DNA of 64,000 bases from Streptomyces sp. NPDC092296 (GTDB lineage: Bacteria; Actinomycetota; Actinomycetes; Streptomycetales; Streptomycetaceae), in the NCBI RefSeq assembly GCF_044755465.1, contig NZ_JBIVRB010000010.1, forward strand, positions 27,517-91,516. Direction: 5' to 3'. The notes below the pieces were generated by a model that was not told the DNA's origin, searched no databases, and saw nothing but the letters and a program-made list of their open reading frames with translations. Shown piece after piece: positions 1 to 58,644 of the stretch. Position 1 is the stretch's first letter. Every line of letters starts with the position of its first letter. The translations under genes were made by a program, and so were the position numbers.

Positions 1-1856
1 CGTAGGCCGGCTCGTCGGCCGCGCCGCACGGTGCGGGCAGCTCGTCCTCGGGCAGTTCGGCGCCGTCCAGGAGGATCACCCGGACCCCGCCGCCGGCCTC
101 CCGGGCCAGGGCGCGGGCCTGCGCCAGGTGCTCCCGGTCGGCGAGGATCGAACCGGCGCCGCTGCGCGACAGCATCGGGACCAGCCGGGCCTCGGGGGCG
201 TCGACGTCGAACGGGAGGTAGACCCCGCCCGCCCCGAGCACACCGCACACGGCGGTGATGAAGTCCAGGCCGGGCCGGGCCAGCACGGCGACCAGGCCGG
301 GACGGCGGTGCGCCCCGTCGGCCGGTCCGCCCGTGCCCAGGGAGCGGGAGAGTGCTCCCGCCCGGCGCACCAGGGCGGCGTAGGTCAGCTCTCCCTCCGG
401 GGCCACGACGGCGATCGCGTCGGGGTAGGCGGCGGCGGTCAGTCGTACGCGCTCCACCAGGTGCCCGCCGCTCTCCTCGACCCGGGGGCCCACCGCGGTC
501 GGCCGCGCGTCGCGGGCCGGCTCGTCGACGCGGAGCCGCGCGAGCGGCGCCGCCGCGTCCGGCCCGGCGAACCGGGTGAGCAGTTCGGCCAGTCGGCGCG
601 CGTGGGCGTCCATCGCGGCCTGGTCGTGACGGCCGTCGTTGCCGCTGAGATGGATCGTCAGGCCGCCCCCGGGTGCCTGGACGAGGGTGAGCTCGAAGTC
701 GTCGATCAGGCCGGTCGACAGGTTGTGTACCGTCACCTCGCAGTCACCGAGGCGCAGTTCGGTCCGCTGCGGCAGGATGTTCACCAGCGGCCCGAACGGG
801 CGGTGGTCGTCACTGCGCAGCCCGATCTCACGGCGGATGCGGCTCACCCGCAGCCGCTGGTGCGTGATCAGCGCGTTGAACTCGCGCGAGACCTGGGAGA
901 GCAGCTCACGGCGGGTGCTCCGGTCGTCGATGCGCAGCCCCAGCGGCAGCGTGTTCGCGACCATCCCGGGCACCGCGCGCATCGTCGCGCCGACCCGGGC
1001 GGTGGCCGGAACGGTCAGCAGGACGTCGCGCCGCCCGGTGTACTTCCAGGTGTAGACGGCGACGGCGGCCATCACCACGGTCGGCCAGGTGACCGCGGCC
1101 TCCCGGGCCAGGGCGCGCAGCCGGTCGGCCACCTCGGGCGGCAGTTCGCAGCGGCTGCGCAGGAAGCCCGCGCCGGCCGTGCCGCCCGGCGCGGCCAGAC
1201 TCACCGGCTCCGGGGGCTGCGGGAAGCGGCGACGCCAGTAGGCCAGGTCCCGTGCCTGGTGGGCCGAGCCCTGGTAGGCGGCCTCCCTGTCGAGCAGTTG
1301 CCGCAGGGGAGGCAGGCGCTTCCCGCCGTCGCCCCCCGGGGCCCCGTCCGGCTCGGCCCCGTCCGGCTCGGCCTCATACAGCTCGGCCTCATACAGCTCG
1401 GTCAGCCTGTCCCAGAAGAGCACCTGGCTGTAGCCGTCGCAGAGCAGGTGGTGGATGCACATGTAGAAGAAGGAGCGCTGTTCGCCGCAGTGGATCAGCG
1501 CGAAGCGGACCAGCGGGCCGTGCTCCCGGTCGAAGGGCGTGGCGAGGTCGTCGCGCATCCACGCGTGCGCCGCCTCCTCGTCCGGCAGCTCGGCGGTGCG
1601 GAAGGGGAGTTCGGTGACCGGTTCCACCACCTGCCGCAGTGCCCCGTCCACCTCGACGATCCGGGCCCGCATGCACTCCGCCTCCTGGACCAGCCCGGCC
1701 ACCGCGCGGCGGAAGGCGTCGATGCGCAGCGGACCACGGATGTCCAGGTAGCCGGCGGTGTTGTAGTGGGCGCCGGCCCCGCCGAGCTTCTCGTCGAACC
1801 AGATGTCCGCCTGCCCGGCGGAGAGCGGCAGCACAAGGGAGGGGGCTTGCGTCATT
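1..1856 (-). CDS. Nonribosomal peptide synthetase, N-terminal part (condensation domain then start of adenylation domain); 3' end runs off window
   Basis: Reverse-strand translation from ATG at 1856-1854 (SD GGAGAG upstream) gives MTQAPSLVLPLSAGQADIWFDE... with C-domain HHxxxDG motif (CIHHLLCDGYS), then linker and A-domain-like sequence (YAALVRRAGALSR.., LVAVLARPGLDF..). No stop before the window edge. The plus-strand 601-aa ORF 128..1933 is its antisense shadow. Confidence 0.8.
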
Positions 1857-1954
1857 CTGCTCTCCTGCCGGGTGAGGATCGACTGCGACTCATCCTTGGT
1901 GCCGCCGCTGACGGCACACTGACGGGCAACTGACCTCCGCCACCGGCCAGTCGG

Positions 1955-1999
1955 CCGCGAGTCGGTCCGCCGCGAGTCAGTCCGCCGCGAGTCAGTCCG
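1955..1999. promoter_or_regulatory. Three tandem 15-bp direct repeats (GCCGCGAGTCRGTCC) in divergent NRPS/KASIII promoter region
   Basis: The sequence gccgcgagtcggtcc gccgcgagtcagtcc gccgcgagtcagtcc is followed by a partial fourth unit. It lies in the 220-bp intergenic gap between the divergent NRPS and the KASIII operon. Confidence 0.5.
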
Positions 2000-2076
2000 C
2001 CGTCAGGGCGCGGTCAGCCCGGCCGCCTAGCCTGCCGGTCAGGGCCGAACCATGCGGTCGGAGGCGGAGGTCGTCC

Positions 2077-3027
2077 ATGAAACAGCCCGGTGCCCCGGGA
2101 TCGCCAGCGCTGCTGGCGATCTCCAGCCATCTCCCGGAGACCATCCCGGTCTCCGGGCTCCAGGACCGGTTGGCGCTGAGCGATCAGCAGGTGCGCCGGT
2201 TCACCCGGCTCTACGGCCTGGACCGGATCTGCCAGTCCGCCGCGTCGGAGGTCGACCTGCTGGTCGCCGCCGCCGGCAAGCTGGACGAACTGGCCGGCCG
2301 CGAGGAGGACGTGCGCTACATCGTCCGGGCCAAGGGGTTGCGTACCACCGCGCCCTATCCGCGCAACCCCGTGCAGGAGTTCCGGCAGGTGATGGGCCTC
2401 TCCCGCGCCCGGACCTTCGCGGTGGAGGACCACGGCTGCGCGACGGGGCTGCTCGCCCTGGACGTGGCCGCGACGCTGCTGGCGCAGGACGGCGACCCGG
2501 ACGCCCTGGCGCTGGTGCTCCTCGGGGACAAGACGCTGACCCCGTTCTCCCAGTGGGTGGCCGACGTCTCCATCATGGGCGAGGGCGTCGCCGTGGCCCT
2601 GGTCGCGGCCGGTGGCACCCGGGACCGCATCCTCGGCTACGCGAGCCGGATCCACGGCCGCCCGGACGGTCAGATCGACATGACCCCGGACCTCGCCAAG
2701 CAGGCCCGGAAGATCTACCAGGACGCCTTGGCGGAGGTCGTGCAGGCCGCCTGCGAGCAGGCCGGGATCACCGTGGACGATCTGGACCTCGTGCTGCCGC
2801 ACAACGTCAACCGGGTCTCCTGGACGGTCGCCGGGGACCGGCTCGGCCTGCCGCAGGAGAAGCTCTTCCTGGACAACATCGCCGCCACGGGGCACTGCTT
2901 CTGCGCCGATCCCTTCATCAACCACCGGAGCGCACGAGAGCTGGGCCGGCTCCAGCCGGGCGACCGGTACCTGATGACCTCTGCCGGGCTGGGACAGGCG
3001 TTCGCGGCCATGGTCCTGCAGCACTGA
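2077..3027 (+). CDS. 3-oxoacyl-ACP synthase III (FabH/KASIII)-like protein, possibly an ACP-dependent acyltransferase
   Basis: The 316-aa protein has a nucleophile region EDHGCATGLLALDVA aligning to the FabH Cys motif. Its C-terminal half is FabH-like (PHNVNRVSW..LPQEKLF..ATGHCF), with GHCF where FabH has GNTS. A purine-rich SD (ggaggcggagg) lies upstream. Confidence 0.7.
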   Translation: MKQPGAPGSPALLAISSHLPETIPVSGLQDRLALSDQQVRRFTRLYGLDRICQSAASEVDLLVAAAGKLDELAGREEDVRYIVRAKGLRTTAPYPRNPVQEFRQVMGLSRARTFAVEDHGCATGLLALDVAATLLAQDGDPDALALVLLGDKTLTPFSQWVADVSIMGEGVAVALVAAGGTRDRILGYASRIHGRPDGQIDMTPDLAKQARKIYQDALAEVVQAACEQAGITVDDLDLVLPHNVNRVSWTVAGDRLGLPQEKLFLDNIAATGHCFCADPFINHRSARELGRLQPGDRYLMTSAGLGQAFAAMVLQH

Positions 3028-3041
3028 ACGTAGGAGGGACG

Positions 3042-4448
3042 ATGACCGACACCGTCAGCCGGGCCGCCCGCTTCCCCCGCTTCACCGACCGGCTCAGGAC
3101 CGCGCTGGGCGCCCCAGGGGCACCGCTGGTGCTGCTGGGCAACTTCGAGGTCGAGGAGGCCTGGTCAGCCGAGGAACTCACCCTGCCGCGCTTCTCGGCG
3201 GACTCCGGCGCCGCCGTGGTCAACCGGATGGACGAGTTCACGCTCCTGCTCGCGGGCGAGCAGGACCATGTGGTCCTCAAGTCGGCCCCCGACCCGGCCT
3301 ACCTCGCCTATCTGACCGCCCTGGGGCTTCAGCTGCCGCAGATCCATGCGGTGGCGGAGCACTGCCGCCGACCGGAGCGGACCGTCACCCTCGACGCCCT
3401 CGACGATCCGGAGCTGCTGGAGCGGCTCGGCTCGCTGGGCCGCTCCGGGGCGCGGCTGCTGCCGCACGGTACCTCTGCGGCGGAGAAACGGCTCGCCGAG
3501 CGCGCCGGCCTGCCGCTGGCGACGCCCGGCGCCGAGCTCTGCAAACGCGTCAACAGCAAGATCTACAGCCGCCGGCTGGCCGAGCAGCTGGGCCTGCGGC
3601 TCGCCCCCGGCTGGGCCTGCGAGACCCTCGACGAGCTGGCCCAGGCCTTCGAGCACGCCCGCAAGCTGCTGGGCGAGGGCCGCCGCACCGTGGTCAAGGA
3701 GGCGTTCGGGGTCTCCGGCAAGGGCATCACCATGCTTGACAGCGAACGCCGGATGGACCGGATCCTGACCATGGTCGCCGCCCAGGCACGCCGCTCGGGG
3801 CGCGACCGGATCGCCTTCGTGGTGGAGGAGTGGGTCGAGAACCTCGGCGACCTCAACTACCAGTTCACCGTGGGCAAGGACGGATCGGTCCACTTCGACT
3901 TCGTCAAGCAGGCGCTGACCGAGGGCGGTGTGCACAAGGGCCACCGCTTCCCGGCCCGGCTGACCGACCCGCAGTCGGCCGCGATCGTCGAGGTGGCGAC
4001 CCTGCTCGGCCCGCTGCTGGCCGCCGACGGCTACCACGGAGTGGTGGGCGTGGACGCCCTGCTCACCGCCGACGGGGGCGTCCTGCCCGTGGTCGAGATC
4101 AACGCCCGCAACAACATGTCCACCTATCAGGCCCGCCTCCAGGAGGAGCTGCTGGGGCCGGACCAGGTGGCCCTCGCCCGGCACTACCCGCTGCGCCTCG
4201 ACGCGGAGCTGGGCTTCGACCGGCTCCGCACCGTGCTGGACGGGCTGGTGCTGGACCGGCCGGGCGGCACCGGCCTGCTGGTCAACAACTTCGCGACCGT
4301 CAACGCCGGCCGGGACCTCCGGCCGGGCGAGTCCTTCGACGGCCGCCTGTACGCCATGGTGGTGGCCGGCTCGGCCGCCGAACTGACCGAGATCGACGAG
4401 GGCGTGAGCGCCCGACTCGCGGCGGAAGGAGTAGCCGGTGCCCGCTGA
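3042..4448 (+). CDS. ATP-grasp family carboxylate-amine ligase (BtrJ-like candidate)
   Basis: The 468-aa protein starts at an ATG preceded by GGAGGGAC. It has ATP-grasp signatures: a K..G..G.GI loop (KEAFGVSGKGITM) and an E.N.R motif (VVEINARNNMST). The 2052..4448 ORF in the track is an N-terminally over-extended frame. Confidence 0.7.
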   Translation: MTDTVSRAARFPRFTDRLRTALGAPGAPLVLLGNFEVEEAWSAEELTLPRFSADSGAAVVNRMDEFTLLLAGEQDHVVLKSAPDPAYLAYLTALGLQLPQIHAVAEHCRRPERTVTLDALDDPELLERLGSLGRSGARLLPHGTSAAEKRLAERAGLPLATPGAELCKRVNSKIYSRRLAEQLGLRLAPGWACETLDELAQAFEHARKLLGEGRRTVVKEAFGVSGKGITMLDSERRMDRILTMVAAQARRSGRDRIAFVVEEWVENLGDLNYQFTVGKDGSVHFDFVKQALTEGGVHKGHRFPARLTDPQSAAIVEVATLLGPLLAADGYHGVVGVDALLTADGGVLPVVEINARNNMSTYQARLQEELLGPDQVALARHYPLRLDAELGFDRLRTVLDGLVLDRPGGTGLLVNNFATVNAGRDLRPGESFDGRLYAMVVAGSAAELTEIDEGVSARLAAEGVAGAR

Positions 4449-5739
4449 ATTCGAGGTCCAGGGCCTCGTGATCACCGATATCGCCGAGGAGTTCGGCACC
4501 CCGCTGTACCTCTACGACGGCGAGGCCCTGCGGGACCGGGTCAGCTCGCTCCGCGCGCTGCTCCATCCCCGGCTGGAGATCTTCTACTCGCTCAAGGCCA
4601 ATCCCAACGTCTCGGTCTGCGCGCTGCTCCACACGTTCGGCGCCAACGCCGAGATCTCCTCGCTGGTCGAGCTGCGCACCGCGCGGGCGGCCGGGGTGGC
4701 GCCGGAGGACATCCTCTTCCTGGGCCCCGGCAAGAGCGTCGAGGAGTTGGAAGCCTGCCTGGACGAGGGCGTCTTCGCGATCGTCTGCGAGTCCTTCGGC
4801 GAACTGGCCCTCATCGACGAGCTGGCCGCCCGGCGGGGGATCGTCGCCCGGGTCGCGCTGCGGGTCAACCCCGAGTTCGCGGTGAAGGGGTCGGGACTGA
4901 CCATGGGCGGCAAGCCACGGCAGTTCGGCATCGACGAGGCCCAGTTGCTGGCCGCGTCCGACCTGGCCGACCGCCACCGGCACGTCCGGCTGGTGGGCAT
5001 CCAGACCTATATGGGAACCAGAATCCTCGCCGCCGGTGCGGTGGTGGAGAACACCGAGCGGATTCTCGCGCTGGCGGAGCGCGTCTCGACCCGGCTGGGC
5101 TTCCCGCTGGAGCTGGTGGACGTCGGCGGCGGCCTGGGCGTGGCGTACTTCGAGGGGGAGGAGGACCTGGACCCGGCCGAACTGGCCACCGGGATCAACC
5201 CGTTGATCGCGGCGTTCGCGGACCGGCACCCCGGGGTCCGGCTGGTGATGGAGCTCGGCCGCTACCTGACGGCGGAGGCGGGCACCTATGTCACCCGGGT
5301 GCGCTATGTGAAGGAGTCCATGGGCCAGCGGTTCGCGGTGGCCGACGGCGGCACCAACCACCACATGGCGGCCGTGGGCATCGGCTCCTTCATCAAGCGC
5401 AACTTCCCGCTGGCCGTGCTCAACCGGCTGGACGAGCCGCCGACCGAGCTGTGGAACATCACCGGTCCGCTGTGCACCCCCAGCGACACCCTGGGCAAGC
5501 GGGCGCTGCTCCCGCCGCTCCGGGCCGGCGACCTGATCGGCGTGGGGCGCTCGGGCGCCTACGGGCCCAGCGCCTCGCCGGTCCTCTTCCTCAGCCACGG
5601 CCACCCGGCGGAGGTCCTGGTCTGGCGGGGCCGCGCCCACCTGGTCCGCCGACGGGACCGGGCGGAGGACCTGCTGGACCGGCAGCAGCTCGCCGACCTC
5701 GGTGAGCCGGCCGACCTCACCGCGAGCCCGGCCGGCTGA
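4438..5739 (+). CDS. PLP-dependent decarboxylase, fold type III (Orn/DAP/Arg decarboxylase family; BtrK-like candidate)
   Basis: The 433-aa protein carries the FYSLKANPN PLP-Lys motif and an overall diaminopimelate-decarboxylase-like architecture. The GTG start overlaps the upstream stop by 11 nt. Confidence 0.85.
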   Translation: MPAEFEVQGLVITDIAEEFGTPLYLYDGEALRDRVSSLRALLHPRLEIFYSLKANPNVSVCALLHTFGANAEISSLVELRTARAAGVAPEDILFLGPGKSVEELEACLDEGVFAIVCESFGELALIDELAARRGIVARVALRVNPEFAVKGSGLTMGGKPRQFGIDEAQLLAASDLADRHRHVRLVGIQTYMGTRILAAGAVVENTERILALAERVSTRLGFPLELVDVGGGLGVAYFEGEEDLDPAELATGINPLIAAFADRHPGVRLVMELGRYLTAEAGTYVTRVRYVKESMGQRFAVADGGTNHHMAAVGIGSFIKRNFPLAVLNRLDEPPTELWNITGPLCTPSDTLGKRALLPPLRAGDLIGVGRSGAYGPSASPVLFLSHGHPAEVLVWRGRAHLVRRRDRAEDLLDRQQLADLGEPADLTASPAG

Positions 5740-5821
5740 CCGGCGCCGTCCCCACCGGCGAGGCACCGAGCCGGCGCCGCCGCACACACCCGCACACCCA
5801 CCGAGAACCGGAGACACCGCC

Positions 5822-6097
5822 ATGACCGAGACCAGCACCCACACCCCCGACCGCGCCGAGGTGATCGGCGTCATCGGCCGCTCCCTCGTCGTCGTCCTCG
5901 GCGACGGACTGCCCGCCCTCACCGAGGAGTCCCGCCTCTTCGACCAGGTCGGCCTGGACTCCAACGGCGTCTTCGAGCTGCTGATGGAGCTGGAGGAAGC
6001 CCTCGGCATCGAGCTGGACACCGACAACCTGGAGATGCGGCACTTCGAGAGCCTCGGCTCCCTGGCGGACTTCCTGCTCGCGGAGATGAGCAGCTGA
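5822..6097 (+). CDS. Stand-alone acyl/peptidyl carrier protein
   Basis: The 91-aa protein MTETSTHTPDRAEVIGV... has a phosphopantetheine-site motif (GLDSNGVFELLMELEE). The track ORF 5702..6097 is over-extended; ATG at 5822. Confidence 0.75.
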   Translation: MTETSTHTPDRAEVIGVIGRSLVVVLGDGLPALTEESRLFDQVGLDSNGVFELLMELEEALGIELDTDNLEMRHFESLGSLADFLLAEMSS

Positions 6098-6099
6098 CG

Positions 6100-6966
6100 A
6101 TGTATCAGGCAACCGCACCGCTGCTGACGCCGTCCGGGACCGACACACAGCACTCCGCACCGCTGCGCCTGGCGCGGGTCGTCCACCGCGCGTTCGGCCC
6201 GGGTGAGTCCCGCATCGACGACGAGTTCTCCACCCGGCACTTCACCGACATCGCCGGGGCCTACGGCCGGGACTACCGGCCGGACCTCGCCCCGGGGGGT
6301 ACGGGCAACACCTTCGCGACGATGTCCCGTGAACTGGTGGAGGCCCTGGGCCCCGACGCCGCCGAGATCCAGGTGGCCGTGGTCGGCCATGTGACCCCGG
6401 ACCTGGACTGCCGATCGGCCGCGACCACCTACCTCTCCGACGCGTGGCCGGCCGGGCCGCTCGCCTTCGGCGTCTCCGAGCAGGGCTGCTGCACCCCGCT
6501 CACCGCACTCCGGCTGGCCCAGGCGTACGCCGCGCGGCACGGACTGGAGCGGGCCCTGGTCCTCCTGCTGGACCAGGCGACGCTGCCGTACGAGACGGGG
6601 CGGCGGCTCGCCGGTGACGCGGGCATCGCGCTGCTGCTCAACCGGACCGGGACGCTCGCCGTGCCCGAGCCGAGGGTGCTCCCCGGCGTCGCCGCCGAGC
6701 GGGTCCGCGACACGCTGGCCGAGCAACTGGCGGACATCGGTCCCACCACCCTGCTGGTCGGGCCGGGCATCGACCCGGACCGCGACCTGCCCGCCGGGTC
6801 GGCGGCGCACCGCTCCGCCACGGGCTTCCCGGCCGTCGGCCTCTGGGCCGACCTCGCGGCCTCGGCGGAACTGCCGCTGCGCCGCCCGGCGGCTCTGATC
6901 GACCGGGACCCGGACAGCGGGGACCTGGCGATCTGCCTGCTCCGGCCGACGCCGGACTCGGCGTGA
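6100..6966 (+). CDS. Truncated KASIII/thiolase-fold protein (N-terminal half with nucleophile Cys), function unknown
   Basis: The 288-aa protein aligns by eye to the FabH N-terminal domain (VAVVGHVTPDLDCRSAATTYL.. and SEQGCCTPLTALRLAQAYA, versus FabH ..STPD..PSTA.. and NAACSGF..AL..A). No C-terminal thiolase half is present. It starts 2 nt after the ACP stop. Confidence 0.5.
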   Translation: MYQATAPLLTPSGTDTQHSAPLRLARVVHRAFGPGESRIDDEFSTRHFTDIAGAYGRDYRPDLAPGGTGNTFATMSRELVEALGPDAAEIQVAVVGHVTPDLDCRSAATTYLSDAWPAGPLAFGVSEQGCCTPLTALRLAQAYAARHGLERALVLLLDQATLPYETGRRLAGDAGIALLLNRTGTLAVPEPRVLPGVAAERVRDTLAEQLADIGPTTLLVGPGIDPDRDLPAGSAAHRSATGFPAVGLWADLAASAELPLRRPAALIDRDPDSGDLAICLLRPTPDSA

Positions 6967-7604
6967 ACGGCCCGGACCTCTGGTCCCGGGTCCACACCGC
7001 GGCCCGCGAGGAGGGACTGGCCCCCGCGTTGGCCCTGCTCTGCGCGCCGCAGGGCCCGGCCGGCCCGCCGTACGGACCACGCGGCCATGCGGTGCTGCCC
7101 GGCACGGACGTCGCTCCGCTGCCCGACGGCGCCACGGTGCTGGACACGGTGCCGCTGCCCGGCGGGTCGGTGACACTGCTGCGCCTGCGTGACGGGGCAG
7201 CGGACCCGCCGCCACCCGCGCCGGAGGGGTTCACCCAGGGGCTGGCCTGGCTGCGGCTCGGCCTCTCGCAGTGGCTCTGCCGGCAGGTGATGGCCTACCT
7301 CGCGACCCGCAACGTCGGCGGCGCCCCGCTGCTGCGGCAGCAGCTCGTCAAGGGCGCGATCGCGGACACCGTCGGGGAGCACCTGGAGCTGCGGGAGACC
7401 CTGGAGGCCGCAGGCGCCGACCCGCTGGACGCGGGCACGCTGGGCGACCTGCACCGCCAGCTCACCGTCACCGACCGGGCCCAGGTTCGCTTGCTGGGCG
7501 CCCGTGGCTACCTGGCCGAAGGGCCCGGACACGCCGCCTACCTCTCGGAGCTGCTGGCGGAGGCGTATCTGAACGAGACCGGTCCGAGCGGGCGGGTCGA
7601 CTGA
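6963..7604 (+). CDS. Hypothetical protein resembling the C-terminal 4-helix domain of acyl-CoA dehydrogenases
   Basis: The 213-aa protein starts at a GTG in a GTGA overlap with the upstream stop. The segment RLGLSQWL..AYLATRNVGGAPLLRQQLVKGAIADTVGEHLELRETL resembles the ACAD C-terminal region (R.G.A..A..Y...R..FG.P....Q.VQ..LADM..E.EAAR). Confidence 0.4.
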   Translation: MNGPDLWSRVHTAAREEGLAPALALLCAPQGPAGPPYGPRGHAVLPGTDVAPLPDGATVLDTVPLPGGSVTLLRLRDGAADPPPPAPEGFTQGLAWLRLGLSQWLCRQVMAYLATRNVGGAPLLRQQLVKGAIADTVGEHLELRETLEAAGADPLDAGTLGDLHRQLTVTDRAQVRLLGARGYLAEGPGHAAYLSELLAEAYLNETGPSGRVD

Positions 7605-7644
7605 CCTGATGTCGATTATATGTCTTCCATAGACCGGGGGGTGA

Positions 7645-7685
7645 TCCTGCTCACAGCAGGACCACCCCCCGGCCACCTTCGAGGC
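7645..7685 (+). terminator. Strong hairpin (about 19-bp stem) downstream of the plus-strand operon
   Basis: The sequence ccggggggtgatcctgct-cac-agcaggaccaccccccgg lies 40 bp after the stop at 7604. It is preceded by an atypically AT-rich stretch (tcgattatatgtcttccatag). Confidence 0.5.
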
Positions 7686-7857
7686 GGACGACCAGTATCT
7701 GATCGCACGTCAGCCGGTCGGGGCGGCGGCCGAGCCCACGTGGACGGCGGAGGGCGGCCCACGGGTCAGCCGGCACCGGCCCGGCGTGGACTGCACCGTG
7801 CACGTGTCGATGCCCTGAGCCCGCCGAGTCCGTCCGCTCCGAAGGGGAAGCCTGTCC

Positions 7858-8622
7858 ATGGAGGTACAGATACTCGGTTCGCTGGCGGTGCAGTCGGGGG
7901 ATCAGCTGTACCGGCTGCCCTCCAAACGCGTACGCACCGTCCTCGCCCTGCTCGCCCTGACGCCCGGCGAGCCGGTGGGCGTCGACCACCTCATCGACCA
8001 ACTCTGGCCGGACCGGCGGATGGGGAACTCCCGCAACGCCCTCCAGGCCAACATCGGCCGACTGCGCCGGTTCCTGGAGTCGATCACGGACAGCGGCACC
8101 GGCCGGGTGGTCCGCACCCTCAGCGAGAGCTATGTGCTGGAGCTGCCGCCAGAGGCGGTGGACTCCCATCTCTTCCTCTCCCTGGCCGAACGCGGCGCGA
8201 TGGAGGTCGGCACCAGCCACGAGGAGGCCATAGCCCTGCTGGAACAGGCGCTGCGCCTGTGGCGCGGCCCGGCACTCTTCGACCTCTACGACAGCCCCCG
8301 GCTCCAGCTGGAGGCCCACCACCTCGACGAGCAGCGGCTGAGCGTCCGGGAGGACCTGATCGCCGCCAAGCTGGCGGTGGGGCGAATCCGCAGCGTCATC
8401 CCCGAGCTGCGCCAGCTCACCCAGCTGCACCCGGGCCGGGAGCGGTTCAGCGAGCAGCTGATGCAGGCCCTGTACCGCGACGGCCGGCAGACCGAGGCGC
8501 TGGACGTCTTCCACCGCACCCGCAGCTGGCTGGTGCGGGAACTGGGCCTGGAGCCCGGCCATCGGCTCTCCGGCGTCTACCACTCGATCCTGACGCACGA
8601 CCCGGTCCTGGACCGGCAGTGA
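7858..8622 (+). CDS. SARP-family transcriptional activator (OmpR-type wHTH plus BTAD domain)
   Basis: The 254-aa protein MEVQILGSLAV...RVRTVLALLAL...VDHLIDQLWPD...LELPPEAVDSHLF.. matches AfsR/DnrI/RedD-type small SARPs by eye. It sits between two biosynthetic operons. Confidence 0.85.
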   Translation: MEVQILGSLAVQSGDQLYRLPSKRVRTVLALLALTPGEPVGVDHLIDQLWPDRRMGNSRNALQANIGRLRRFLESITDSGTGRVVRTLSESYVLELPPEAVDSHLFLSLAERGAMEVGTSHEEAIALLEQALRLWRGPALFDLYDSPRLQLEAHHLDEQRLSVREDLIAAKLAVGRIRSVIPELRQLTQLHPGRERFSEQLMQALYRDGRQTEALDVFHRTRSWLVRELGLEPGHRLSGVYHSILTHDPVLDRQ

Positions 8623-8710
8623 GAGCGGGACGACCAACCCTCCCCGCCCGGCCCGGCGCGGTTGCGACGGACCGGGCAGGGACGCTCCCGCGTACCGGCA
8701 GCGCCGCCGC

Positions 8711-9865
8711 TCAGGTGAGCTTGCCGCTGGCGAAGCCCTGGTAGACGTTGAGACGCTGCATCGCGCTGGTCCCCTCGATGAACTCCAGCGACCGCGCGTC
8801 CCGGGCCAGCTTGTCCAACAGCGGATGGTCGAGCCGCGCACCCGGCCCGAAGAGACCGCACGCCGCCAGGGTGGCATCCTCCGCCAGCGCGCTCGCCCGC
8901 AGTTTGGCCGCGGAGGCGAGCGGCCCGCCGTCGGGGCCGCCCGCGTCCACCGCGGCGGCGGCCCGGTGGACCAGCCGCCGGGTGGCGTCGACCCGCCGCT
9001 CCAACTGCTCCAGCCGGTCGTGCTCGCCCGTGCGGAGCGGGCCGCGATGGGCGCGGACGTACTCCAGCGCGGCGCGGGCCATGCCCACGCCGATCGCCGC
9101 CACCCCCGGCCGCAGCCGGTTGAAGGTCTGGATGAAGGCCCAGGTGCCACGGCGGCTCGGCGGGAGGTGGCGGCCGAGCAGCCGCTCCTCGGGGATCTCC
9201 ACGCCGTCCAGCTCCACCGCGCTGATACACGCTCCGCGCAGCCCGATGGTCGGCAGGACCTCGGCCCGGTAGCCCGGCACCGCCGTCTCGGTGAGCACCG
9301 CGACCACGCCCAGCGGCCCCGGCCGGTTGCGGGCGAAGACCACGCCGAGCTGCGCTCGGGCCGCGTTGCCGACGAAGCGCTTGGCCCCGGTCAGCAGCGC
9401 CCCGCCGTCACCGGCGGGACGCAGGGCGGTCCGCATGGCGCTGGCGTCCGAGCCGTTGTCGGGCTCGGTGAGCGCGAAGAAGGTCCACAGGGGCTCGGCG
9501 AGCATCCGCCCGTAGAACCACTCCTTCTGCTGCTTGTCCGCCAGCAGCCCCACCAGGACGCCGGCCAGCAGCGGCCCCGGGGAGGCGACCAGGACACCGG
9601 CGTCGGCGCAGGACAGCTCCTCCATGATGACCGCGCGTTCCACGGCCCGGGTGCCGTGGAAGCGGTGCCCGGCGATCGGCTCGGGGTCGTTCCCGTACTC
9701 CGCCGGGATGCCCATGGTGGCGAGGTAGCGGACGGCGGGCAGGTCGAACCAGCCGCGCACCGCCGCGGGGTCGCGGTCCAGCTCCAGCGCTCGGGCGCGG
9801 AAGTCCCGCCCCCACTCCCGGAACTGCCCGCGCAGCGCGGTCAGGGGTCCGTCGAGTTCCGGCAC
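8711..9865 (-). CDS. Acyl-CoA dehydrogenase family flavoprotein (possibly ACP-substrate dehydrogenase/oxygenase)
   Basis: The true start is probably GTG at 9865 (SD GAGGAGGA upstream), giving about 385 aa VPELDGPLTALRGQFREW... with the ACAD middle and C-terminal domains (..FALTEPDNGSDA.., ..RLEFIEGTSAMQRL..). The track's 433-aa version has an Arg-rich, over-extended N-terminus. Confidence 0.75.
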   Translation of the reverse strand: MPELDGPLTALRGQFREWGRDFRARALELDRDPAAVRGWFDLPAVRYLATMGIPAEYGNDPEPIAGHRFHGTRAVERAVIMEELSCADAGVLVASPGPLLAGVLVGLLADKQQKEWFYGRMLAEPLWTFFALTEPDNGSDASAMRTALRPAGDGGALLTGAKRFVGNAARAQLGVVFARNRPGPLGVVAVLTETAVPGYRAEVLPTIGLRGACISAVELDGVEIPEERLLGRHLPPSRRGTWAFIQTFNRLRPGVAAIGVGMARAALEYVRAHRGPLRTGEHDRLEQLERRVDATRRLVHRAAAAVDAGGPDGGPLASAAKLRASALAEDATLAACGLFGPGARLDHPLLDKLARDARSLEFIEGTSAMQRLNVYQGFASGKLT

Positions 9866-9879: not shown

Positions 9880-10587
9880 TCAGCCGCAGCCGCCGGCGTG
9901 TCCCTCTTCGGAGGAGGGGCCGACGGAGCCGGGGCCGGACGGTACGGGCAGTGACTCCGCGCCGGGTGTCTGCGCGCGCAGATGCGCGACGAAGTCCGGC
10001 AGGCGGTCCCACCCCCAGAAGCGGTTGAACCCCTGAACGAAGAAGGGCACCCCGAAGACCCCGTCCCGGCAGAGATCGAGCAGCAGCCCGGCGCCCTGCT
10101 CGCGCAGGTCCGGGTCGGTCGCGGCCCCGGCGGTCTCCTCGGGGTCGAGGCCGAGTTCGGCCCCGAGCTCACCGACCACCGCCGGATCGCAGATGTTGCG
10201 GCCCTCCTCCCAGCGGGCCCGGTAGGCGGCGGCCACGAACTCCCGGCCCAGACCCTCCCTGCGGGCGACCAGGTAGGCGAGGTGCGGAACCTCCCAGACC
10301 GGCTCCCGGTCGACGGGCCACACCACCCGCCGGCCCAGCCGCTCCGCGAGCCGGCCGACGTCCTGGAGGATGTAGAGGTGCTTGGCACGCGACATCGGCA
10401 CATAGGGGAAGGCGCCCCCCAGCTCGATGAGCCGGGCGGCACTCTTCTCGTCCGGCTCCCAGAAGGGCCGCCACTCCACCTGCTCCGCGACATCGGGGTG
10501 GTGCTCCAGCAACTCCCGGTGCGCCAGCCAGGAGTAGGGACTGCGCAGCGAGAAGTAGTAGCGCGGCTGCCTCGGCTTCCTGCCCAT
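9880..10587 (-). CDS. DsbA-like thioredoxin-fold protein of the 2-hydroxychromene-2-carboxylate isomerase family
   Basis: The 235-aa protein has an N-terminus RYYFSLRSPYSWLA typical of HCCA-isomerase/DsbA-like proteins. Its ATG overlaps the fabG stop (ATGA). Confidence 0.7.
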   Translation of the reverse strand: MGRKPRQPRYYFSLRSPYSWLAHRELLEHHPDVAEQVEWRPFWEPDEKSAARLIELGGAFPYVPMSRAKHLYILQDVGRLAERLGRRVVWPVDREPVWEVPHLAYLVARREGLGREFVAAAYRARWEEGRNICDPAVVGELGAELGLDPEETAGAATDPDLREQGAGLLLDLCRDGVFGVPFFVQGFNRFWGWDRLPDFVAHLRAQTPGAESLPVPSGPGSVGPSSEEGHAGGCG

Positions 10588-11336
10588 CAGAGCACCAACC
10601 CGCCATCCACGCCGAAGACCTGGCCGGTGATGTAGGAGGCGCGGTCGGAGGCGAGGAAGGACACCAGGTCCGCGACCTCCTCGGGCCGTCCGAAGCGGCC
10701 GAGGGGAATCCGCTCGGTCATCCTGCCGACGTGGTCCGGCGACAGGGAGGCGGTCATGTCGGTGTCGATGAAGCCGGGCGCCACCACATTGGCCCGGATG
10801 CCCCGTGGGCCGACCTCCTTGGCCAGCGCTTTGGTGAAGCCGATGATCCCCGCCTTGGAGGCCGAGTAGTTCGACTGGGTGGCGTGCCCGTGGACGCCGG
10901 CGATCGAGGACATCGTGATCAGCGCCCCGGTGCGGCGCTTCATCATCGCGAACACCGCCGAGCGGCAGACGTGGTAGGTCCCGTCGAGGTTGGTGCGCAG
11001 CACCGCCGACCAGTCCGCCTCCGGCAGCAGGACCAGCGGATTGTCGCGCACCAGCCCGGCGTTGGGGACCGCCACGTGCACCGGCCCGAGCTCCCGCTCG
11101 GTCCGCTTGACGAAGGCGTCCACCTCGGCGGCCTGCGCCACGTCCACCCGGCAGGCGAGCACCGAGGCTCCGAAGGCCGCGAACTCCTTCGCGGCGGCCT
11201 CCGCGGCCGCTTCGTCCGCCCGGTAGCAGAAGGCGATGTCATAGCCGTCCTGTGCGAGTCGGGCCGCCACACTGCGCCCTATCCCGCGTGATCCGCCCGT
11301 GATGAGTGCGACCGGGCGCTCTCCCTGGGATGCCAT
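10587..11336 (-). CDS. fabG: 3-oxoacyl-ACP reductase (SDR, FabG-like)
   Basis: The 249-aa protein [24 protein letters not shown]... has the NAG motif, YSASKAG catalytic tetrad residues and a C-terminal GQVFGVDGG. Its ATG overlaps the upstream stop (ATGA). Confidence 0.9.
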
Positions 11337-11866
11337 CAGTTCTCCTCTCCTTGCCCGACCGACGCGCCCGAGGCACCGTACGCATCGTCCGGCCCGTCGC
11401 CGCGCAGCGTCTCCGCCGGGCGCAGCGCTATGGTCATCTCGTCGATCTCCAGCAGCAGCCGGCCCTCGCAGCGGGTCTCGCCGGTCAGGATCGCGGTGCC
11501 ACCCAGGTCGCGGAGGAGCCGGACCTCGTGCTCCACCAGCTGCCCCGGCCAGGCCGCGCCGCTCACCCGGACCCCCTTCAGGCCGGCCAGCAGTGCGACC
11601 GTGCCGGTGAGCACATCCGGGTTGGGCCGCTCCCAGCAGACCAGCAGCACCGCCGCCTGAGCCCAGGACTCCAGCAGCCAGCCCGTCGGGTAGGCATGGC
11701 GGCCGGGGGCCGCGTCCTCCTCGATGCCCGCGTAGCAGGGCTCCGCCGCGCTGACCGCCTTGCGTGCGCGCAGCCGCGTGCCCGGTTCCACCTCGACCAC
11801 CTGGTCCACCAGCAGGACCGGGTGGCGGTGCGGCACCACCCGCCGGATCTCGGCGACGCCGATCAC
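11336..11866 (-). CDS. FabZ-like hotdog-fold 3-hydroxyacyl-ACP dehydratase (subunit 2)
   Basis: The 176-aa protein starts at GTG with SD GGGGGAGGG. It contains [19 protein letters not shown] (FabZ-like LPHRxPFLLVDRV), with [17 protein letters not shown] in place of the QGHFPG..PGVL region. Confidence 0.7.
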
Positions 11867-12363
11867 GGGCCCTCCCCCGAAGAAACAACGCCCGAAGAAA
11901 CAACGCCCGAAGAAACAACGCCCGGAGAGACGACGCCCGGACAGGCGCTGGGCGGAGAGAGGCTGGGCGGATAGACGATGCGCAGCTTCGCCACCGGTCC
12001 GTGCGGGCCGTCGAGTCGGACGGCGGCCCGGGTGCCGCCCTCGGTCTCCTCGACCACGGCCTCCAGCCGGAGCCGCTCCTGCGGACGCACCGGCGCCAGG
12101 AATCTGGCCCGCTCCAGCAGCAGCGGCTGCTCCGGCTCCCGCCCGAGCGACCGGCACAGCAGGGTGTGCACCCGCTGGACCATGAAGAGTCCTGGGACCA
12201 GGGCGAACCCGGGGTAGTGACCGGCCTGGACGGCATCGTCCGGCCCCACCGCTCCGGCGCCGCGCAGGACCGTCCGGCCGTCGGTCTCCGCCGGCTCCAG
12301 CCGGTCCAGCGGCGGCACCGGTACGGCGGCCCGCTGCCCCGCGTCAGCCGGCCAGGACCGCAC
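11863..12363 (-). CDS. FabZ/FabA-like hotdog dehydratase (subunit 1) with C-terminal (GVVSS)n repeat tail
   Basis: The 166-aa protein contains [18 protein letters not shown], the FabZ QGHFPG.P..PGVL catalytic motif. Its stop overlaps the downstream GTG (GTGA). The C-terminal [25 protein letters not shown] tail is encoded by 15-bp tandem repeats. The start is uncertain (GTG at 12363 or downstream). Confidence 0.6.
11878..11945 (-). repeat. 15-bp tandem repeat (gaagaaacaacgccc x3 plus a variant) within the 3' end of the hotdog dehydratase gene
   Basis: Direct reading shows gaagaaacaacgccc gaagaaacaacgccc gaagaaacaacgccc ggagagacgacgccc. The repeat is in frame and encodes GVVSS repeats on the minus strand. 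Confidence 0.85.
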
Positions 12364-13456
12364 AGCCGACCATCCCGTCGCGGTCGATGCCGGTCACCAG
12401 CGCCACCTCACCGGGGGCCAGGACCCCCTGGTCGGCGGCGGCGAGCACGGCGGCCACCTGGACGGCCGTGGAGGCGGCCGAGGTGTCGCCGAGCAGGTCG
12501 CGGCAGTCCAGTACCCGGGACGGCGCGGCTCCCAGCGCGGCGGCCACGGCCGCCGTCTCCGTCTCCGCGTCCAGCGGGGCGAGCAGCCGGACGCGGTCCG
12601 CCGCGACACCGGCCCGGTCGAGGGCCGAGCGTACGCACTCCGTCAGCGCCTGCGCCGCCCCGCCCGGCCGGTGGTGGGCGCGGAACCGCACGCCGAGCAG
12701 GCGCGCCGAGGGCCTGCGGCCGGTCGTCGGCGTCGTCTCCTCGGCCTCCAGGAGGGCGACCGCCGCGGCTTCGCCGAGCACCCGGGGTTCCGCCGCCGCG
12801 GCCTCCTCCAGCCGGTGGCGCCGCACCGAGTACTCCTCGGCCGCTCCGCAGATCACCTGCTCGCAGTGGCCGCCCCGGTAGAGCCGGGAGGCGTACCCGA
12901 GGACGTGCAGACCGGTCAGGCTGCCCCCGGCCACGGTGCTGTTCGGTCCCTTGATGCCGTGCCAGATCGCGCTCTGGCCGGCGGCGCGGTTCATCACCGT
13001 GTTGGGAAAGCGGGCCGGGTCCACGTGGTAGGGCTTCTCCCCGGTCAGCGCGGACTCGGTGAAGTCCATGATGCTCTGGACGCTGCCGTGGCCGGTCCCC
13101 AGCACCAGCCCGACCCGCTCCGGCCGAACCAGCAGCTGCGGACCGCAGTCGGTGAGCAGCCGGTCCACCGCCGTCACCGCCAGCGCGGTGACCCGGTCCA
13201 TGGTGCGGGTGCCCTTGCGGCCGAGCGCTTCGGCGGCGCTGAAGCCCGGCACCACCCCACCGCGCCCCGGGACGCCGGGGAGCGGCCCCGGGCCCAGCTC
13301 CGCCAGGGCGCTGCGGCCCGCCAGCACGCCGGCGCCGAAGGCCGCGCCGCCCACGCCGTACGGGGTGACGGCGGACCAGGCGGTGAGCACCAGCCGGGCC
13401 GTCGCACGCCCCTCGGCGCCGCCGACCGGCGGCGCCGAGGGGGCCGCCGCCGTCAC
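12344..13456 (-). CDS. Ketosynthase-like protein lacking the active-site Cys (KS-beta / chain-length-factor-like)
   Basis: The 370-aa protein has a KS N-terminus ([15 protein letters not shown]). The GP....TACSSSL position reads [14 protein letters not shown], so no Cys is present. It starts at GTG in a GTGA overlap with the upstream thioesterase stop. Confidence 0.8.
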
Positions 13457-14414
13457 CGGTTGCCCCGGCCGGTGATCCGCCCGGCCTTCCCGTGCAGGGC
13501 GTCGGTCAGGCGGTCGTCGAAGTCGACCAGGCTCCAGTCACGGCGGTTGCCGATGACGGCCCAGCCGTGGGTGATCTTCCCGGTCGCCGTCTGCACCAGC
13601 CTGCCGTCGCGTACGACGTAGCAGTCCATCCGCGCGGTGTAGGTGTACCGCTTGAAGACGTTCTCCACGGTGAAGACGGTGTGGACGGTCTCCTCCATGC
13701 GCGCCTCGTCGAGGATCTCGATCCGCGAGTGCGGGACGACCGGTATCCAGTCCTGCTCGTCGAGCAGCGTCTTGATGGAGACGCCCCGGTCCTGGAGGAA
13801 GAGGTCCACGACCTCCTCCATCAGGCGCAGATAGCCCGACATCTGCACCCGCTCGGTGAAGTGGCAGTAGAAGTACGGCATCCGCCAGGACCAGCCGAAG
13901 GCGTTCTGGCCCTCGACCAGCTGCGCGAGCGGGTCGGCACCGGTCACCTCGGCCGACTCCGCCTGCTCGTCGGTCCCCAGCCGGTCGACCACATAGGGCG
14001 CCAGCTGCGCCGGCGGCTGCTCGGCCGCGTGGCCCCGGGGGTCGAGCCGCAGCTGCACGGTGGCCTTGGAGACCACGGCCCTGATCCGCTCGCCATCGCG
14101 GTCCACGGTCAGCTCCACGGCGAACCGCAGCTCGTCGCCCGGCACCCGCCGGACGGTGGCGGAGGCGACGTCATCGATGTGGAAGGCGGTCAGGATCTTG
14201 GTGTCGATCCGGGTGATGTCGGTGCCGATGCCGAACCGCTCGTAGAGCGCGCCGGCCGGATGGCCCTGCTGGCGCAGGTGGTCGTAGATCGCCTCTTCGA
14301 CCATGTAGTTGACGTGCTTGAACCCGATCCAGGTGCAGATGTTCGAGCCTTCGTAGCGGGGGCGGAGTTCCGTCGTGGTGATCGGTTCCGCTGCGGTGAC
14401 GGTGCTCTGGCTCA

Positions 14415-14415
<1 letters not shown>
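13453..14415 (-). CDS. Tandem hotdog-fold thioesterase-like protein (4HBT-like double hotdog)
   Basis: The 320-aa protein has two hotdog-like halves (ICTWIGFKHVNYMVEEAIYDHL and MPYFYCHFTERVQMSGYLRLMEEV). Its ATG is in an ATGA overlap with the hydrolase stop. Confidence 0.6.
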
Positions 14416-15283
<868 letters not shown>

Positions 15284-15287
<4 letters not shown>

Positions 15288-16543
15288 CGTTCCGGCTCGT
15301 AGCGGCCGAGGATCAGCACCGCGTTGTTGCCCGCGAAGGCCAGGGCGTTGTTCTGCACGATGCGGACATCGGCCTGGCGCGCCTGGTTGGGCACCGGGTC
15401 GATACCGCACTCCTCGTCCGTCGTCCGGTGGTTGATGGTCGGCGGGATGAACCCCTCCGTGATGGCCAGCGCGCACGCGGCCGAGGCCAGCGCACTGGCC
15501 GCGCCCATGGTGTGCCCGAGCATTCCCTTCACCGAGACGGTCGGCGGCGCGTCGCTGAAGACCTGCCGGATCGCCCCGGCCTCAGTGACGTCATTGGCCT
15601 TGGTCCCGGTGCCGTGCGCGGAGATGAAGTCGATCTGCTCCGGCTTCACCCCGGCGTTGCGGTGGGCGAGCTCCATGCAGCGGGCGAGGCTGTCCCGGTC
15701 CGGTGCGACCGGATGGCTGGCGTCGCAGTTCAGGCCGTAGCCCAGCACCTCCGCGTAGATGCGGGCGCCGCGCCGCCGGGCGGACTCCAGGCTCTCCAGC
15801 AGCAGGATGCCGCCGCCTTCACCGGTGAGGATGCCCTTCCGGTCGCTGTCGAACGGGCGGCAGACATCCGGTGCGATGGTCCCCAGCCGGTAGAAGCCGG
15901 TGAAGGTCTTCCGGCAGACCGCGTCGGCGCCGCCGCACAGCGCCATGTCGACCTCACCCGCCCGGATGGCGTCGTAGCCCGACCCGATGGCGTAGTTGCC
16001 GGCCGCGCAGGCGGTCGGGATGGTGACGGCCTCCGCGTCGACCAGTTCGAGTTCGCGCACGATGCCGCTGGAGAGTGCGCCGGCCGAGGCCCGGCGCGCC
16101 ACCCGCCCGTCGACGGGCTCCCCGGCGAGCTGCCGCGCCACCAGCTCGTCCAGGTCCCTGGACTCCCCGTCGGTGGTGCCGACGGAGACCAGCACCGCGC
16201 GGCTGCGCAGCTCGTCCAGGCCCAGCCCCGCGTCGTCGACGGCCATGCGGGCCGCCGCGACCGAGAACTGGCTCGCCCGGCCGAGCTCCTCCGGGTCCAG
16301 CACCTCGATCCACCGCGACGGATCGAAGTCGTCGATCTCGCAGCCGTTGGCATGGGCGAATCCGCTGGTGTCGAACGCGGTGATCGGCTTGACCCGGCTG
16401 CGGCCGGAGCGCAGACCCTCCAGGAACTCCGTCACCCCGATGCCGATGCTGGTGACCACCCCGATTCCGGTGACGACCACCCGGTGCGGCCCGTGCCCGC
16501 CGCTCACCGTCTGATCCCCGGTGTGATCCACGGTGTGATCCAC
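15284..16543 (-). CDS. Beta-ketoacyl synthase (KS-alpha, FabF/type II PKS KS)
   Basis: The 419-aa protein has the active-site Cys (TACAAGNYAIG) and the His motifs (SAHGTGT, GHTMGAAS). The GTG start follows SD GAGGAAGG. The N-terminus DHTVDHTG is encoded by a 12-bp tandem repeat. Confidence 0.9.
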
Positions 16544-16579
16544 GGTGTGTCCCCTTCCTCCGCGTCCGATCGGCGTCGG

Positions 16580-16846
16580 CTAATTGGCGGACGCGTCCTC
16601 GACGACGGCCACGACACCCTCCAGATTGACCATGCGGGTGAGCTCGCTCTGGTCGATCTCGACGTTGAAGGTGCGCTCCAAGGAGGAGAGGATCTCGATG
16701 GCCCCGAGGGAGTCGGCGCCGTGGTCCTTGAACAGGCTGGTCCAGGTCACCTCGGCGGGCTCGATCTCCAGGATCTCGCAGACGATCTCCTTGATCTGCG
16801 CGCGCTGCTCGTCGTTCAGCTTCGCGGCGCGATCCGTGGCGGACAT
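16580..16846 (-). CDS. Acyl carrier protein
   Basis: The 88-aa protein contains ..KDHGADSLGAIEILSSLE.., with the DSL phosphopantetheinylation site. It is the first gene of the minus-strand operon. Confidence 0.85.
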   Translation of the reverse strand: MSATDRAAKLNDEQRAQIKEIVCEILEIEPAEVTWTSLFKDHGADSLGAIEILSSLERTFNVEIDQSELTRMVNLEGVVAVVEDASAN

Positions 16847-57862: not shown

Positions 57863-57879
57863 GGCGCGGCTCCTGTCGT

Positions 57880-58060
<181 letters not shown>

Positions 58061-58631: not shown

Positions 58632-58644
58632 CTCAGCGCGCTCC

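Follow-up and report, generated by a model that had tools for sequence, protein, structure and literature searches.

Which amino acid is loaded onto the stand-alone carrier protein encoded at positions 2077-7604 of a 64,000-nucleotide stretch of Streptomyces sp. NPDC092296 DNA (the window), and does that amino acid start a polyketide chain or receive one? The six genes of this region code, in order, for an enzyme like beta-ketoacyl-acyl carrier protein synthase III (KASIII, or FabH), an ATP-grasp ligase, a fold-type III pyridoxal phosphate (PLP) decarboxylase, an acyl carrier protein (ACP), a protein of 288 aa and a protein of 213 aa. A sequence-only reading of the window had likened the ligase, the decarboxylase and the carrier to BtrJ, BtrK and BtrI of butirosin biosynthesis, and had suggested that glutamate is loaded, decarboxylated to gamma-aminobutyryl-S-ACP and handed by the KASIII-like enzyme to a polyketide line, in a context that had not been described. 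The analysis presented here gives another answer. By sequence comparison and by analogy with the products of related clusters, the region is likely to be an actinomycete module of the Aut/Ole type, by which a lipid is linked to (dehydro)-beta-alanine, and a relative of both BtrIJK and the closthioamide proteins CtaDEF. The starter predicted for the window is thereby corrected from one of Glu and gamma-aminobutyrate (GABA) to an N-acyl starter of Asp and beta-alanine. Nor is the context new: it is published for the autucedines and olenamidonins, and analogous cases exist in bolagladin and AFC-BC11.

Substrate of the ligase and the decarboxylase

The homology of the trio to BtrI, BtrJ and BtrK is borne out. 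The best solved relative of the decarboxylase is BtrK (2j66/7ru7), with 310 bits and an E value of 2.5e-91; the ligase aligns with the BtrJ ortholog of a butirosin-like Paenibacillus locus (28% identity over 318 aa, 115 bits, E 1e-32); and the ACP gene is adjacent. BtrK outscores every LysA structure as a match to the decarboxylase, the best diaminopimelate (DAP) decarboxylase reaching 185 bits, and the top NCBIfam model is that of the carrier-associated family TIGR03099, with 382 bits. These scores speak against the view that the decarboxylase is an ordinary LysA and that the trio is a chance neighbourhood of genes for primary metabolism, a view which can cite the score of 299.0 against the lysA model TIGR01048, whose cutoff is 297.9. 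It is effectively refuted by the strict gene order seen in 48 loci of several genera, inside clusters for nonribosomal peptide synthetases (NRPS) and polyketide synthases (PKS), and its probability is negligible.

The gene order was obtained from a scan of one genome per species, in which a relative of the ATP-grasp ligase was found in 186 actinomycete species genomes. From these, 80 loci (numbered with an L) were fetched, and 62 were judged, namely those in which KASIII, ligase and decarboxylase are present with enough downstream sequence. All seven genes, that is, the six named above and one for an enzyme of the acyl-CoA dehydrogenase (ACAD) family, are held by 48 of the 62 and are colinear in about 41. 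Such an arrangement goes far beyond what chance would give, since dozens of the fetched loci, from different genera, have the genes in this order. Relatives of the NRPS gene, with its condensation (C) and adenylation (A) domains, adjoin the cassette in many loci, and a phosphopantetheinyl transferase (PPTase) lies beside it also in L002, L034 and L085. The cassette is present in most of the 80 fetched loci, yet its genes are mostly annotated as 'ATP-grasp', 'type III PLP enzyme' or 'hypothetical'.

One compact form of the cluster is that of S. cavourensis (L002/L003, 3456-19198), where the cassette occurs without a multimodular NRPS and together with genes for a fatty-acyl-AMP ligase, two ACADs of about 570 aa, an extra ACP, a MatE exporter, a stand-alone C domain and a PPTase. 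This cluster probably makes a small lipo-(dehydro)-beta-alanine amide.

The ligase is more similar to closthioamide CtaD, with which it has PreATP-grasp architecture and size in common (27% identity over 430 aa, 179 bits, E 2e-55), than to the BtrJ ortholog. Its relatives in the PDB are weak ones only, and among its PDB matches at E<=0.01 there is no D-Ala-D-Ala ligase and no RimK structure, as expected from the sequence-only reading. It is 57-61% identical to the ATP-grasp ligases of clusters of the ishigamide (iga) type and the aut type, and in a neighbour-joining tree without bootstrap the ligase and the decarboxylase of the window both nest in a single actinomycete clade with aut-like and iga-like members. 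By analogy with these systems, the ligase is proposed to load L-Asp onto the ACP through the side-chain carboxyl.

The decarboxylase is 38.5% identical to CtaF (E 4e-114), 38.9% to the BtrK ortholog and 70% to the decarboxylase of an iga-type cluster. Similarity of the decarboxylase does not tell Asp from Glu specificity, since the identities to CtaF and BtrK are equal. From this equality it follows that the assignment of Asp rests on the products of the related clusters, the proteins of which are 57-70% identical to those of the window, and on the position in the tree. The decarboxylase is proposed, again by analogy, to convert beta-aspartyl-S-ACP to beta-alanyl-S-ACP.

Suppose instead that Glu is loaded, that gamma-aminobutyryl-S-ACP is made and that the KASIII-like enzyme hands this thioester as a starter to the ketosynthase and chain length factor (KS/CLF) encoded nearby. 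Such a scheme agrees with BtrK being the best solved relative and with the homology of the ligase to BtrJ; BtrK and CtaF are equally close to the decarboxylase, and the Cys-His-His triad of the KASIII-like enzyme, described below, could support Claisen chemistry. However, the known or inferred products of clusters with the cassette contain N-acylated beta-alanine or dehydro-beta-alanine and no chain primed by GABA, and the ligase matches the Asp-loading CtaD better than BtrJ (179 against 115 bits) and over its full length. Homologs of BtrO, BtrV, BtrH and BtrG are also missing from the window: no luciferase-like, BtrH_N or GGACT match to Pfam is found in its scanned genes, whereas all three domains are present in the Paenibacillus btr-like locus. 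Finally, an NRPS with a putative starter C domain adjoins the cassette. In view of these products and scores, conversion of Glu to GABA is unlikely, and the scheme as a whole is decidedly improbable.

The ligase family also occurs outside the cassette. In 13 Amycolatopsis loci (L036, L042, L044, L049, L051, L055, L061, L066, L067, L071, L072, L076 and L083) an ATP-grasp ligase 57-62% identical to that of the window is found without decarboxylase, ACP or KASIII genes of the cassette. It follows genes for ACP, KS, CLF and a ketoreductase (KR), and precedes SbnB-like and SbnA-like genes for diaminopropionate (Dap) and an NRPS, as in L044 at 9962-13406.

The proposed route from the tethered amine to a lipopeptide

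The pathway proposed for the window is put together from homology and from the products of related clusters. The PreATP-grasp ligase would activate L-Asp and thioesterify its side-chain carboxyl to the holo-ACP, and the BtrK/CtaF-like decarboxylase would remove the alpha-carboxyl to give beta-alanyl-S-ACP. The KASIII-like enzyme, possibly assisted by the 288-aa protein, which resembles half of a FabH and lacks the Cys, would then move a polyenoyl chain from the Iga-type KS/CLF onto the amine of beta-alanine. The ACAD together with the 213-aa protein, which is like the C-terminal domain of an ACAD, would desaturate C2-C3 to form N-acyl-dehydro-beta-alanyl-S-ACP, an enamide, and the C domain at the N terminus of the divergent NRPS, putatively a starter domain, would take this enamide as the starter of a lipopeptide. 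N-acylation is placed before desaturation because of a bolagladin mutant, in which deletion of the ACAD BolQ leads to dihydro-bolagladins, and because a free enamine is expected to be unstable. Of the earlier suggestion, the part that stands is that a tethered omega-amino acid is coupled to a lipid line by a KASIII-like enzyme. The other part, in which the amino acid primes the PKS, does not, and the direction is probably the reverse: by analogy the acyl chain goes onto the tethered amine, and the resulting N-acyl-aminoacyl-ACP then primes the NRPS.

The KASIII-like enzyme matches FabH structures in the PDB over its full length. It is the counterpart of OleH/AutS and, by analogy, is proposed to be an N-acyltransferase, which would couple the acyl chain to beta-alanyl-S-ACP. 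Its triad is Cys121-His242-His273, invariant in 66-67 of 67 family members; in comparison with a manually entered E. coli FabH reference sequence, His stands in place of Asn274 in all 67, and the Cys-His-Asn triad of FabH is absent. Cys-His-His is the triad of the elongating KAS I/II enzymes. The KASIII-like protein, an invariantly equipped and full-length homolog of FabH, could by this resemblance to elongating ketosynthases be a condensing enzyme, which would join beta-alanyl-S-ACP to malonyl-ACP and so give an amino-primed polyketide, while the amide is made by some other enzyme. Yet the conserved set of genes offers no other candidate for an N-acyltransferase, the related products are N-acyl linked, and amide formation is ascribed to homologs of KASIII in the Aut/Ole, Bol and Afc systems. 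A condensing role is on these grounds highly improbable, and amide formation by the KASIII-like enzyme is preferred.

That a full KASIII is accompanied by a truncated one, corresponding to the N-terminal half, was also part of the sequence-only reading, and Pfam, the FabH structures and the profile matches agree with it. A profile of the 288-aa protein from 38 relatives matches FabH (4ryb) in the PDB at E 1.6e-8 over residues 50-186, and matches only the N-terminal halves of FabH and thiolases; alignment of its family with the neighbouring KASIII family by hhalign gives E 6e-5. Members of its family do not share a Cys at the nucleophile position. The protein is found in 59 of the 62 judged loci, including eight five-gene variants without the ACAD pair (for example in S. 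rimosus and Nocardia), and since it is kept in these variants it belongs with the part of the module that serves loading and acyl transfer. Its sequence suggests a non-catalytic partner of the KASIII-like enzyme, and such a role is proposed here.

Another idea, that a single ACAD is split into the 288-aa and 213-aa proteins, is ruled out for the 288-aa protein: hhalign finds no match between its family and the ACAD family, and its persistence in the eight loci without the ACAD pair also counts against a split ACAD. A model of the 288-aa protein built by AlphaFold from the single sequence reached a mean pLDDT of 37 and was not used further.

Two ACAD-type genes, at 6963-7604 and 8711-9865, belong to the module; the sequence-only reading had not described them. 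The ACAD is 50-73% identical across the fetched relatives and colinear with the cassette in most of them. In the window it lies on the minus strand beyond a gene for a Streptomyces antibiotic regulatory protein (SARP), and it is likewise relocated in L004, L006, L008 and L011. By analogy it is proposed to be the desaturase that forms the enamide, or dehydro-beta-alanine. For the 213-aa protein, a profile search of the PDB gives 14 matches, all to ACADs and 13 of them to C-terminal regions, with a best E value of 1e-3, while hhalign finds no match to the local ACAD family; its assignment as an ACAD C-terminal domain is weak but consistent. Among the 62 loci, ACAD and 213-aa protein are both present in 49, both absent from 10 and discordant in three, and from this co-occurrence it follows that the 213-aa protein belongs with the ACAD, as whose partner it is proposed to act.

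Five-gene variants that lack ACAD and 213-aa protein and have the half-FabH protein are those of L039, L041, L048, L077 and L081, in the S. rimosus group, and of L043, L056 and L079, in Pseudonocardia and Nocardia. They presumably make saturated N-acyl-beta-alanine.

The proposed roles can be combined into a more specific model. The half-FabH protein would be a CLF-like subunit that enables amide formation by the Cys-His-His KASIII, the 213-aa protein would be one subunit of a heteromeric ACAD that acts specifically on N-acyl-beta-alanyl-ACP, both would be obligate and non-catalytic, and the product of the cluster would be a novel polyene-enamide lipopeptide. Taken as a whole this model is tentative, and we regard it as somewhat more doubtful than not.

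The number of residues on the carrier may also be more than one. If ligase and decarboxylase act iteratively, the starter would be an oligo-(dehydro)-beta-alanine, and there are precedents: CtaD and CtaF build (beta-Ala)3 on CtaE, AfcQ and AfcP assemble three dehydro-beta-alanines on one carrier in AFC-BC11, and BtrJ acts twice. In the closest cluster types, on the other hand, a single residue is held, since ishigamide has one and the autucedines and olenamidonins carry one N-acyl-dehydro-beta-alanine (PMC11204786). An oligomeric starter is unlikely for the window.

Several observations weigh against the Aut/Ole assignment and the pathway drawn from it. Judged from sequence, the Cys-His-His triad leaves carbon-carbon condensation by the KASIII-like enzyme chemically possible, and the decarboxylase is equally distant from the Asp-type CtaF and the Glu-type BtrK. 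N-acylation and desaturation could occur in either order, and more than one beta-alanine may be added, CtaD being iterative. Because the Amycolatopsis loci keep the ATP-grasp ligase without decarboxylase, ACP or KASIII, the ligase family perhaps has more than one role, and may have a second substrate. The analogy itself leans on an aut pathway that is known second-hand and as 'proposed' (PMC11204786), and the identification of locus L034 with the aut/ole cluster is based on the order and sizes of its genes rather than on an accession.

The polyketide operon and the limits of the cluster

The gene calls (Table 1) are based on the codon-position GC pattern, on Pfam and NCBIfam scans and on a second assembly of this DNA, for which genes were called independently. 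The window has the high GC content of actinomycete DNA (72-81%), its ligase is 100% identical to one from Streptomyces sp. NPDC092296, and all six co-directional reading frames of the cassette have the codon-position GC pattern of real Streptomyces genes; the second, independent assembly gives identical calls for them. From the coordinates, the junctions between them are +14, -11, +82, +2 and -4 nt. Four of the five junctions are thus tight or overlapping, as had been claimed for all, and the exception is the one between decarboxylase and ACP, where the gap is 82 nt when the ACP starts at ATG 5822. This start is the most likely one by its sequence context, a GGAGA ribosome-binding site preceding the ATG.

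Table 1. Genes at the left end of the window, with strand and basis of assignment
Feature	Position	Strand	Basis or relative
NRPS, N-terminal part (C domain residues 9-430, start of A domain)	2-1855	-	Pfam Condensation 181 bits, AMP-binding
KASIII-like enzyme, 316 aa	2077-3027	+	Pfam ACP_syn_III_C; FabH PDB matches
PreAtp-grasp/ATP-grasp ligase, 468 aa	3042-4448	+	Pfam
Fold-type III PLP decarboxylase, 433 aa, BtrK/CtaF-like	4438-5739	+	Pfam Orn/DAP/Arg decarboxylase; PDB
Stand-alone ACP, 91 aa, GLDSNG Ser motif	5822-6097	+	Pfam PP-binding; independent gene call
FabH N-terminal-half-like protein, 288 aa, OleL counterpart	6100-6966	+	Family profile against PDB; no Pfam match
ACAD C-terminal-domain-like protein, 213 aa, OleM/EtmK counterpart	6963-7604	+	Pfam Acyl-CoA_dh_1 E 7e-4
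SARP-family pathway regulator	7858-8622	+	Pfam BTAD, Trans_reg_C; 49% identity to SARP of iga-type cluster
ACAD-family enzyme, 384 aa, OleN counterpart	8711-9865	-	Pfam
Ishigamide-type highly reducing type II PKS operon	9880-16846	-	Pfam; PDB matches to Iga11/Iga12
DSBA-like protein	9880-10587	-	PKS operon
KR	10587-11336	-	62% identity to KR at Iga13 position, iga-type locus L088
Two small conserved proteins, no Pfam match	11863-12363, 11336-11866	-	44%, 55% identity to L031 counterparts
CLF	12344-13456	-	Iga12, 216 bits
Double-hotdog protein	13453-14415	-	PKS operon
Alpha/beta-hydrolase	14415-15287	-	PKS operon
KS	15284-16543	-	Iga11 (6kxd_A), 543 bits, 64% identity
ACP2	16580-16846	-	PKS operon
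Sfp-type PPTase	17241-17918	+	Pfam ACPS
MFS transporter	19554-21131	-	

The neighbours named in the sequence-only reading are confirmed: the NRPS, which is divergent from the cassette and continues past the window's left end, and the type II KS/CLF operon at about 8.7-16.8 kb on the minus strand. Iga11 and Iga12 are the top PDB matches of the KS and the CLF, which links an ishigamide-type polyene synthase to the cassette. The genes for ACP, KS, hydrolase, hotdog protein, CLF, small proteins, KR and DSBA-like protein immediately precede the cassette, and an NRPS follows it, also in L031, L033, L047 and L054; as operon, cassette and NRPS are found together in many loci, the combination seen in the window is a recurrent cluster type.

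Ishigamide is 3-(tetradecatetraenamido)propanoic acid, i.e., N-polyenoyl-beta-alanine, and it fits the chemistry of the cassette, since hydrolysis of N-acyl-beta-alanyl-S-ACP would release a product of this type. The genomic link between ishigamide-type genes and the cassette varies. A KS more than 72% identical to Iga11 is not found among the 80 genome loci, and in an S. chartreusis locus with a 98%-identical Iga11 ortholog there is no cassette within ±10 kb of the KS. In Streptomyces sp. NPDC014991, a 91%-identical Iga11 at 52.5-73.8 kb and a full cassette with a SARP gene at 88.3-109.6 kb are on one contig. Both ends that flank the 14.5-kb gap between them are inside NRPS genes, and the filling of the gap was deduced from the lengths of three NRPS genes. 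In the window, the MaoC-type dehydratase Iga16 gives no tblastn match, and the proteins at the Iga14 (amine-oxidase-like) and Iga15 (OCD) positions have no homologs; judged from their place in the operon and their sequences, the two small, hotdog-like proteins (11336-12363) or the double-hotdog protein may be candidate dehydratases in place of Iga16.

In a scan of 1800-8800 for promoters and terminators, no promoter-like site was found, and the single terminator-like site equals chance expectation. The 221-bp divergent region between the NRPS and KASIII genes contains a 15-nt tandem repeat, CAGTCCGCCGCGAGT, in 3.7 copies with 92% matches (1948-2002; Tandem Repeats Finder score 96). It might be a candidate binding array for the SARP of the cluster or for another regulator; SARP boxes have a spacing of 11 nt, which differs from the 15-nt period of this repeat.

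Primary metabolism begins at about 22 kb, and from this it follows that the gene cluster is confined to about 0-21 kb and extends past the left edge of the window. At the cluster edge, 21314-22276(+) encodes an unusual regulator with two DNA-binding domains, a GntR-type helix-turn-helix (residues 13-76) and a full TetR module (TetR_N 101-145, TetR_C 157-307). Reading frames without a Pfam match are found at 18064-18954(-) and 50813-52516(+), and the former, with a weak coding signal (score 16), may be no gene. Farther to the right are a cobalamin block at 23594-45438 (CbiX, CbiG, several TP_methylases, CobQ/CobB, CobO, CobN with chelatase subunits, CobD) and an operon for the ethylmalonyl-CoA pathway at 56660-63083 (ccr-like reductase, B12-dependent mutase, HpcH-type lyase, MaoC hydratase, ACAD).

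Comparison with known systems

The system most like the window is Aut/Ole. According to PMC11204786, where the autucedine work of Zhang et al. (Org Lett 2022) is cited, the olenamidonin cluster of S. olivaceus is the same as the aut cluster of the autucedines. Its genes are, in order, OleH (3-oxoacyl-ACP synthase, 309 aa), OleI (ATP-grasp, 480), OleJ (decarboxylase, 427), OleK (ACP, 92), OleL (hypothetical, 296), OleM (short 'ACAD', 234) and OleN (ACAD, 387), followed by a regulator gene, a Dap-biosynthesis gene and then the NRPS; the KASIII homolog OleH/AutS would, as proposed there, attach the acyl chain to the residue on the carrier (PMC11204786). The window contains the same seven protein types at near-equal lengths (316/468/433/91/288/213/384 aa), with SARP, PPTase and NRPS alongside, and the seven proteins of L034, the gene sizes and order of which match Ole, are 46/61/68/47/32/42/57% identical to those of the window in cassette order. 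The window differs in that its ACAD is on the other strand and beyond the SARP gene, in that its lipid would come from an Iga-type KS/CLF of its own, while AutS is proposed to use acyl-CoAs, and in that no Dap genes (SbnA/SbnB-like) are seen in it. Its NRPS is cut off by the edge.

The ishigamide cluster of Streptomyces sp. MSC090213JE08 (BGC0001623) has the closest characterised relatives of the KS, CLF and KR. Compared with this type, the KS of the window is 64% identical, DSBA-like, alpha/beta-hydrolase and hotdog proteins are present, and Iga14, Iga15 and Iga16 are absent. In the ishigamide type, unlike in the window, PKS and cassette stand apart, with three NRPS genes between them.

In closthioamide biosynthesis of Ruminiclostridium cellulolyticum, CtaD loads L-Asp, not beta-Ala, onto CtaE, and CtaF decarboxylates only tethered Asp. 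The PreATP-grasp ligase (CtaD, 471 aa), the carrier and the fold-type III decarboxylase are common to this system and the window, but closthioamide has iterative assembly, neither ACAD nor NRPS, and the papain-like transacylase CtaG instead of a KASIII; no papain-like domain of the CtaG type is found in the window, where the KASIII-like enzyme would have the acyl-transfer role. The butirosin system, in which BtrJ loads Glu onto the carrier and BtrK decarboxylates it to GABA, has the BtrI/J/K families and the logic of thiotemplated ligation and decarboxylation in common with the window. It differs in that BtrJ has no PreAtp-grasp match in Pfam and aligns over 318 aa only, and its aminoglycoside context is not present in the window.

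A literature search on glutamyl- and aminobutyryl-ACP, the Etm genes and enteromycin-class metabolites found nothing on the cassette. Enteromycin contains a 3-aminoacrylate (dehydro-beta-alanine) unit, the acyl partner of which is a nitronate derived from glycine, not a lipid. EtmH, EtmI and EtmK of S. achromogenes are the closest named homologs of OleJ, OleK and OleM (PMC11204786).

In Burkholderia, the bolagladin (BolO/C/N/M/P/Q) and AFC-BC11 (AfcQ/K/P/L/E) systems follow the same logic, from carrier-bound Asp by way of PLP decarboxylation to beta-Ala, KASIII-type acyl transfer and ACAD-type desaturation to dehydro-beta-alanine, and on to the peptide. In the scheme proposed for bolagladin, the BtrK-like BolN decarboxylates Asp carried by BolC, and a KASIII homolog N-acylates the product; for AFC-BC11, two reactions have been reconstituted in vitro, namely the decarboxylation of Asp on its carrier and the acyl-enzyme step catalysed by the KASIII-like AfcL. 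Both differ from the window by a VinN-type adenylating loader in place of the ATP-grasp ligase, by a citrate-primed lipid and by their Gram-negative hosts, and the accessible parts of the reports describe no half-FabH or ACAD C-domain accessory proteins for them.

Set beside these systems, the cassette of the window is another example of a published actinomycete system, the chemistry of which is already in print, and the gain is incremental. Its main interest lies in the two accessory proteins, in the Cys-His-His triad and in the predicted polyene-enamide lipopeptide. More generally, such a cassette can be viewed as a portable join between lipid and peptide by way of an enamide (dehydro-beta-alanine) linker, and recognition of it lets genome miners predict that linker.

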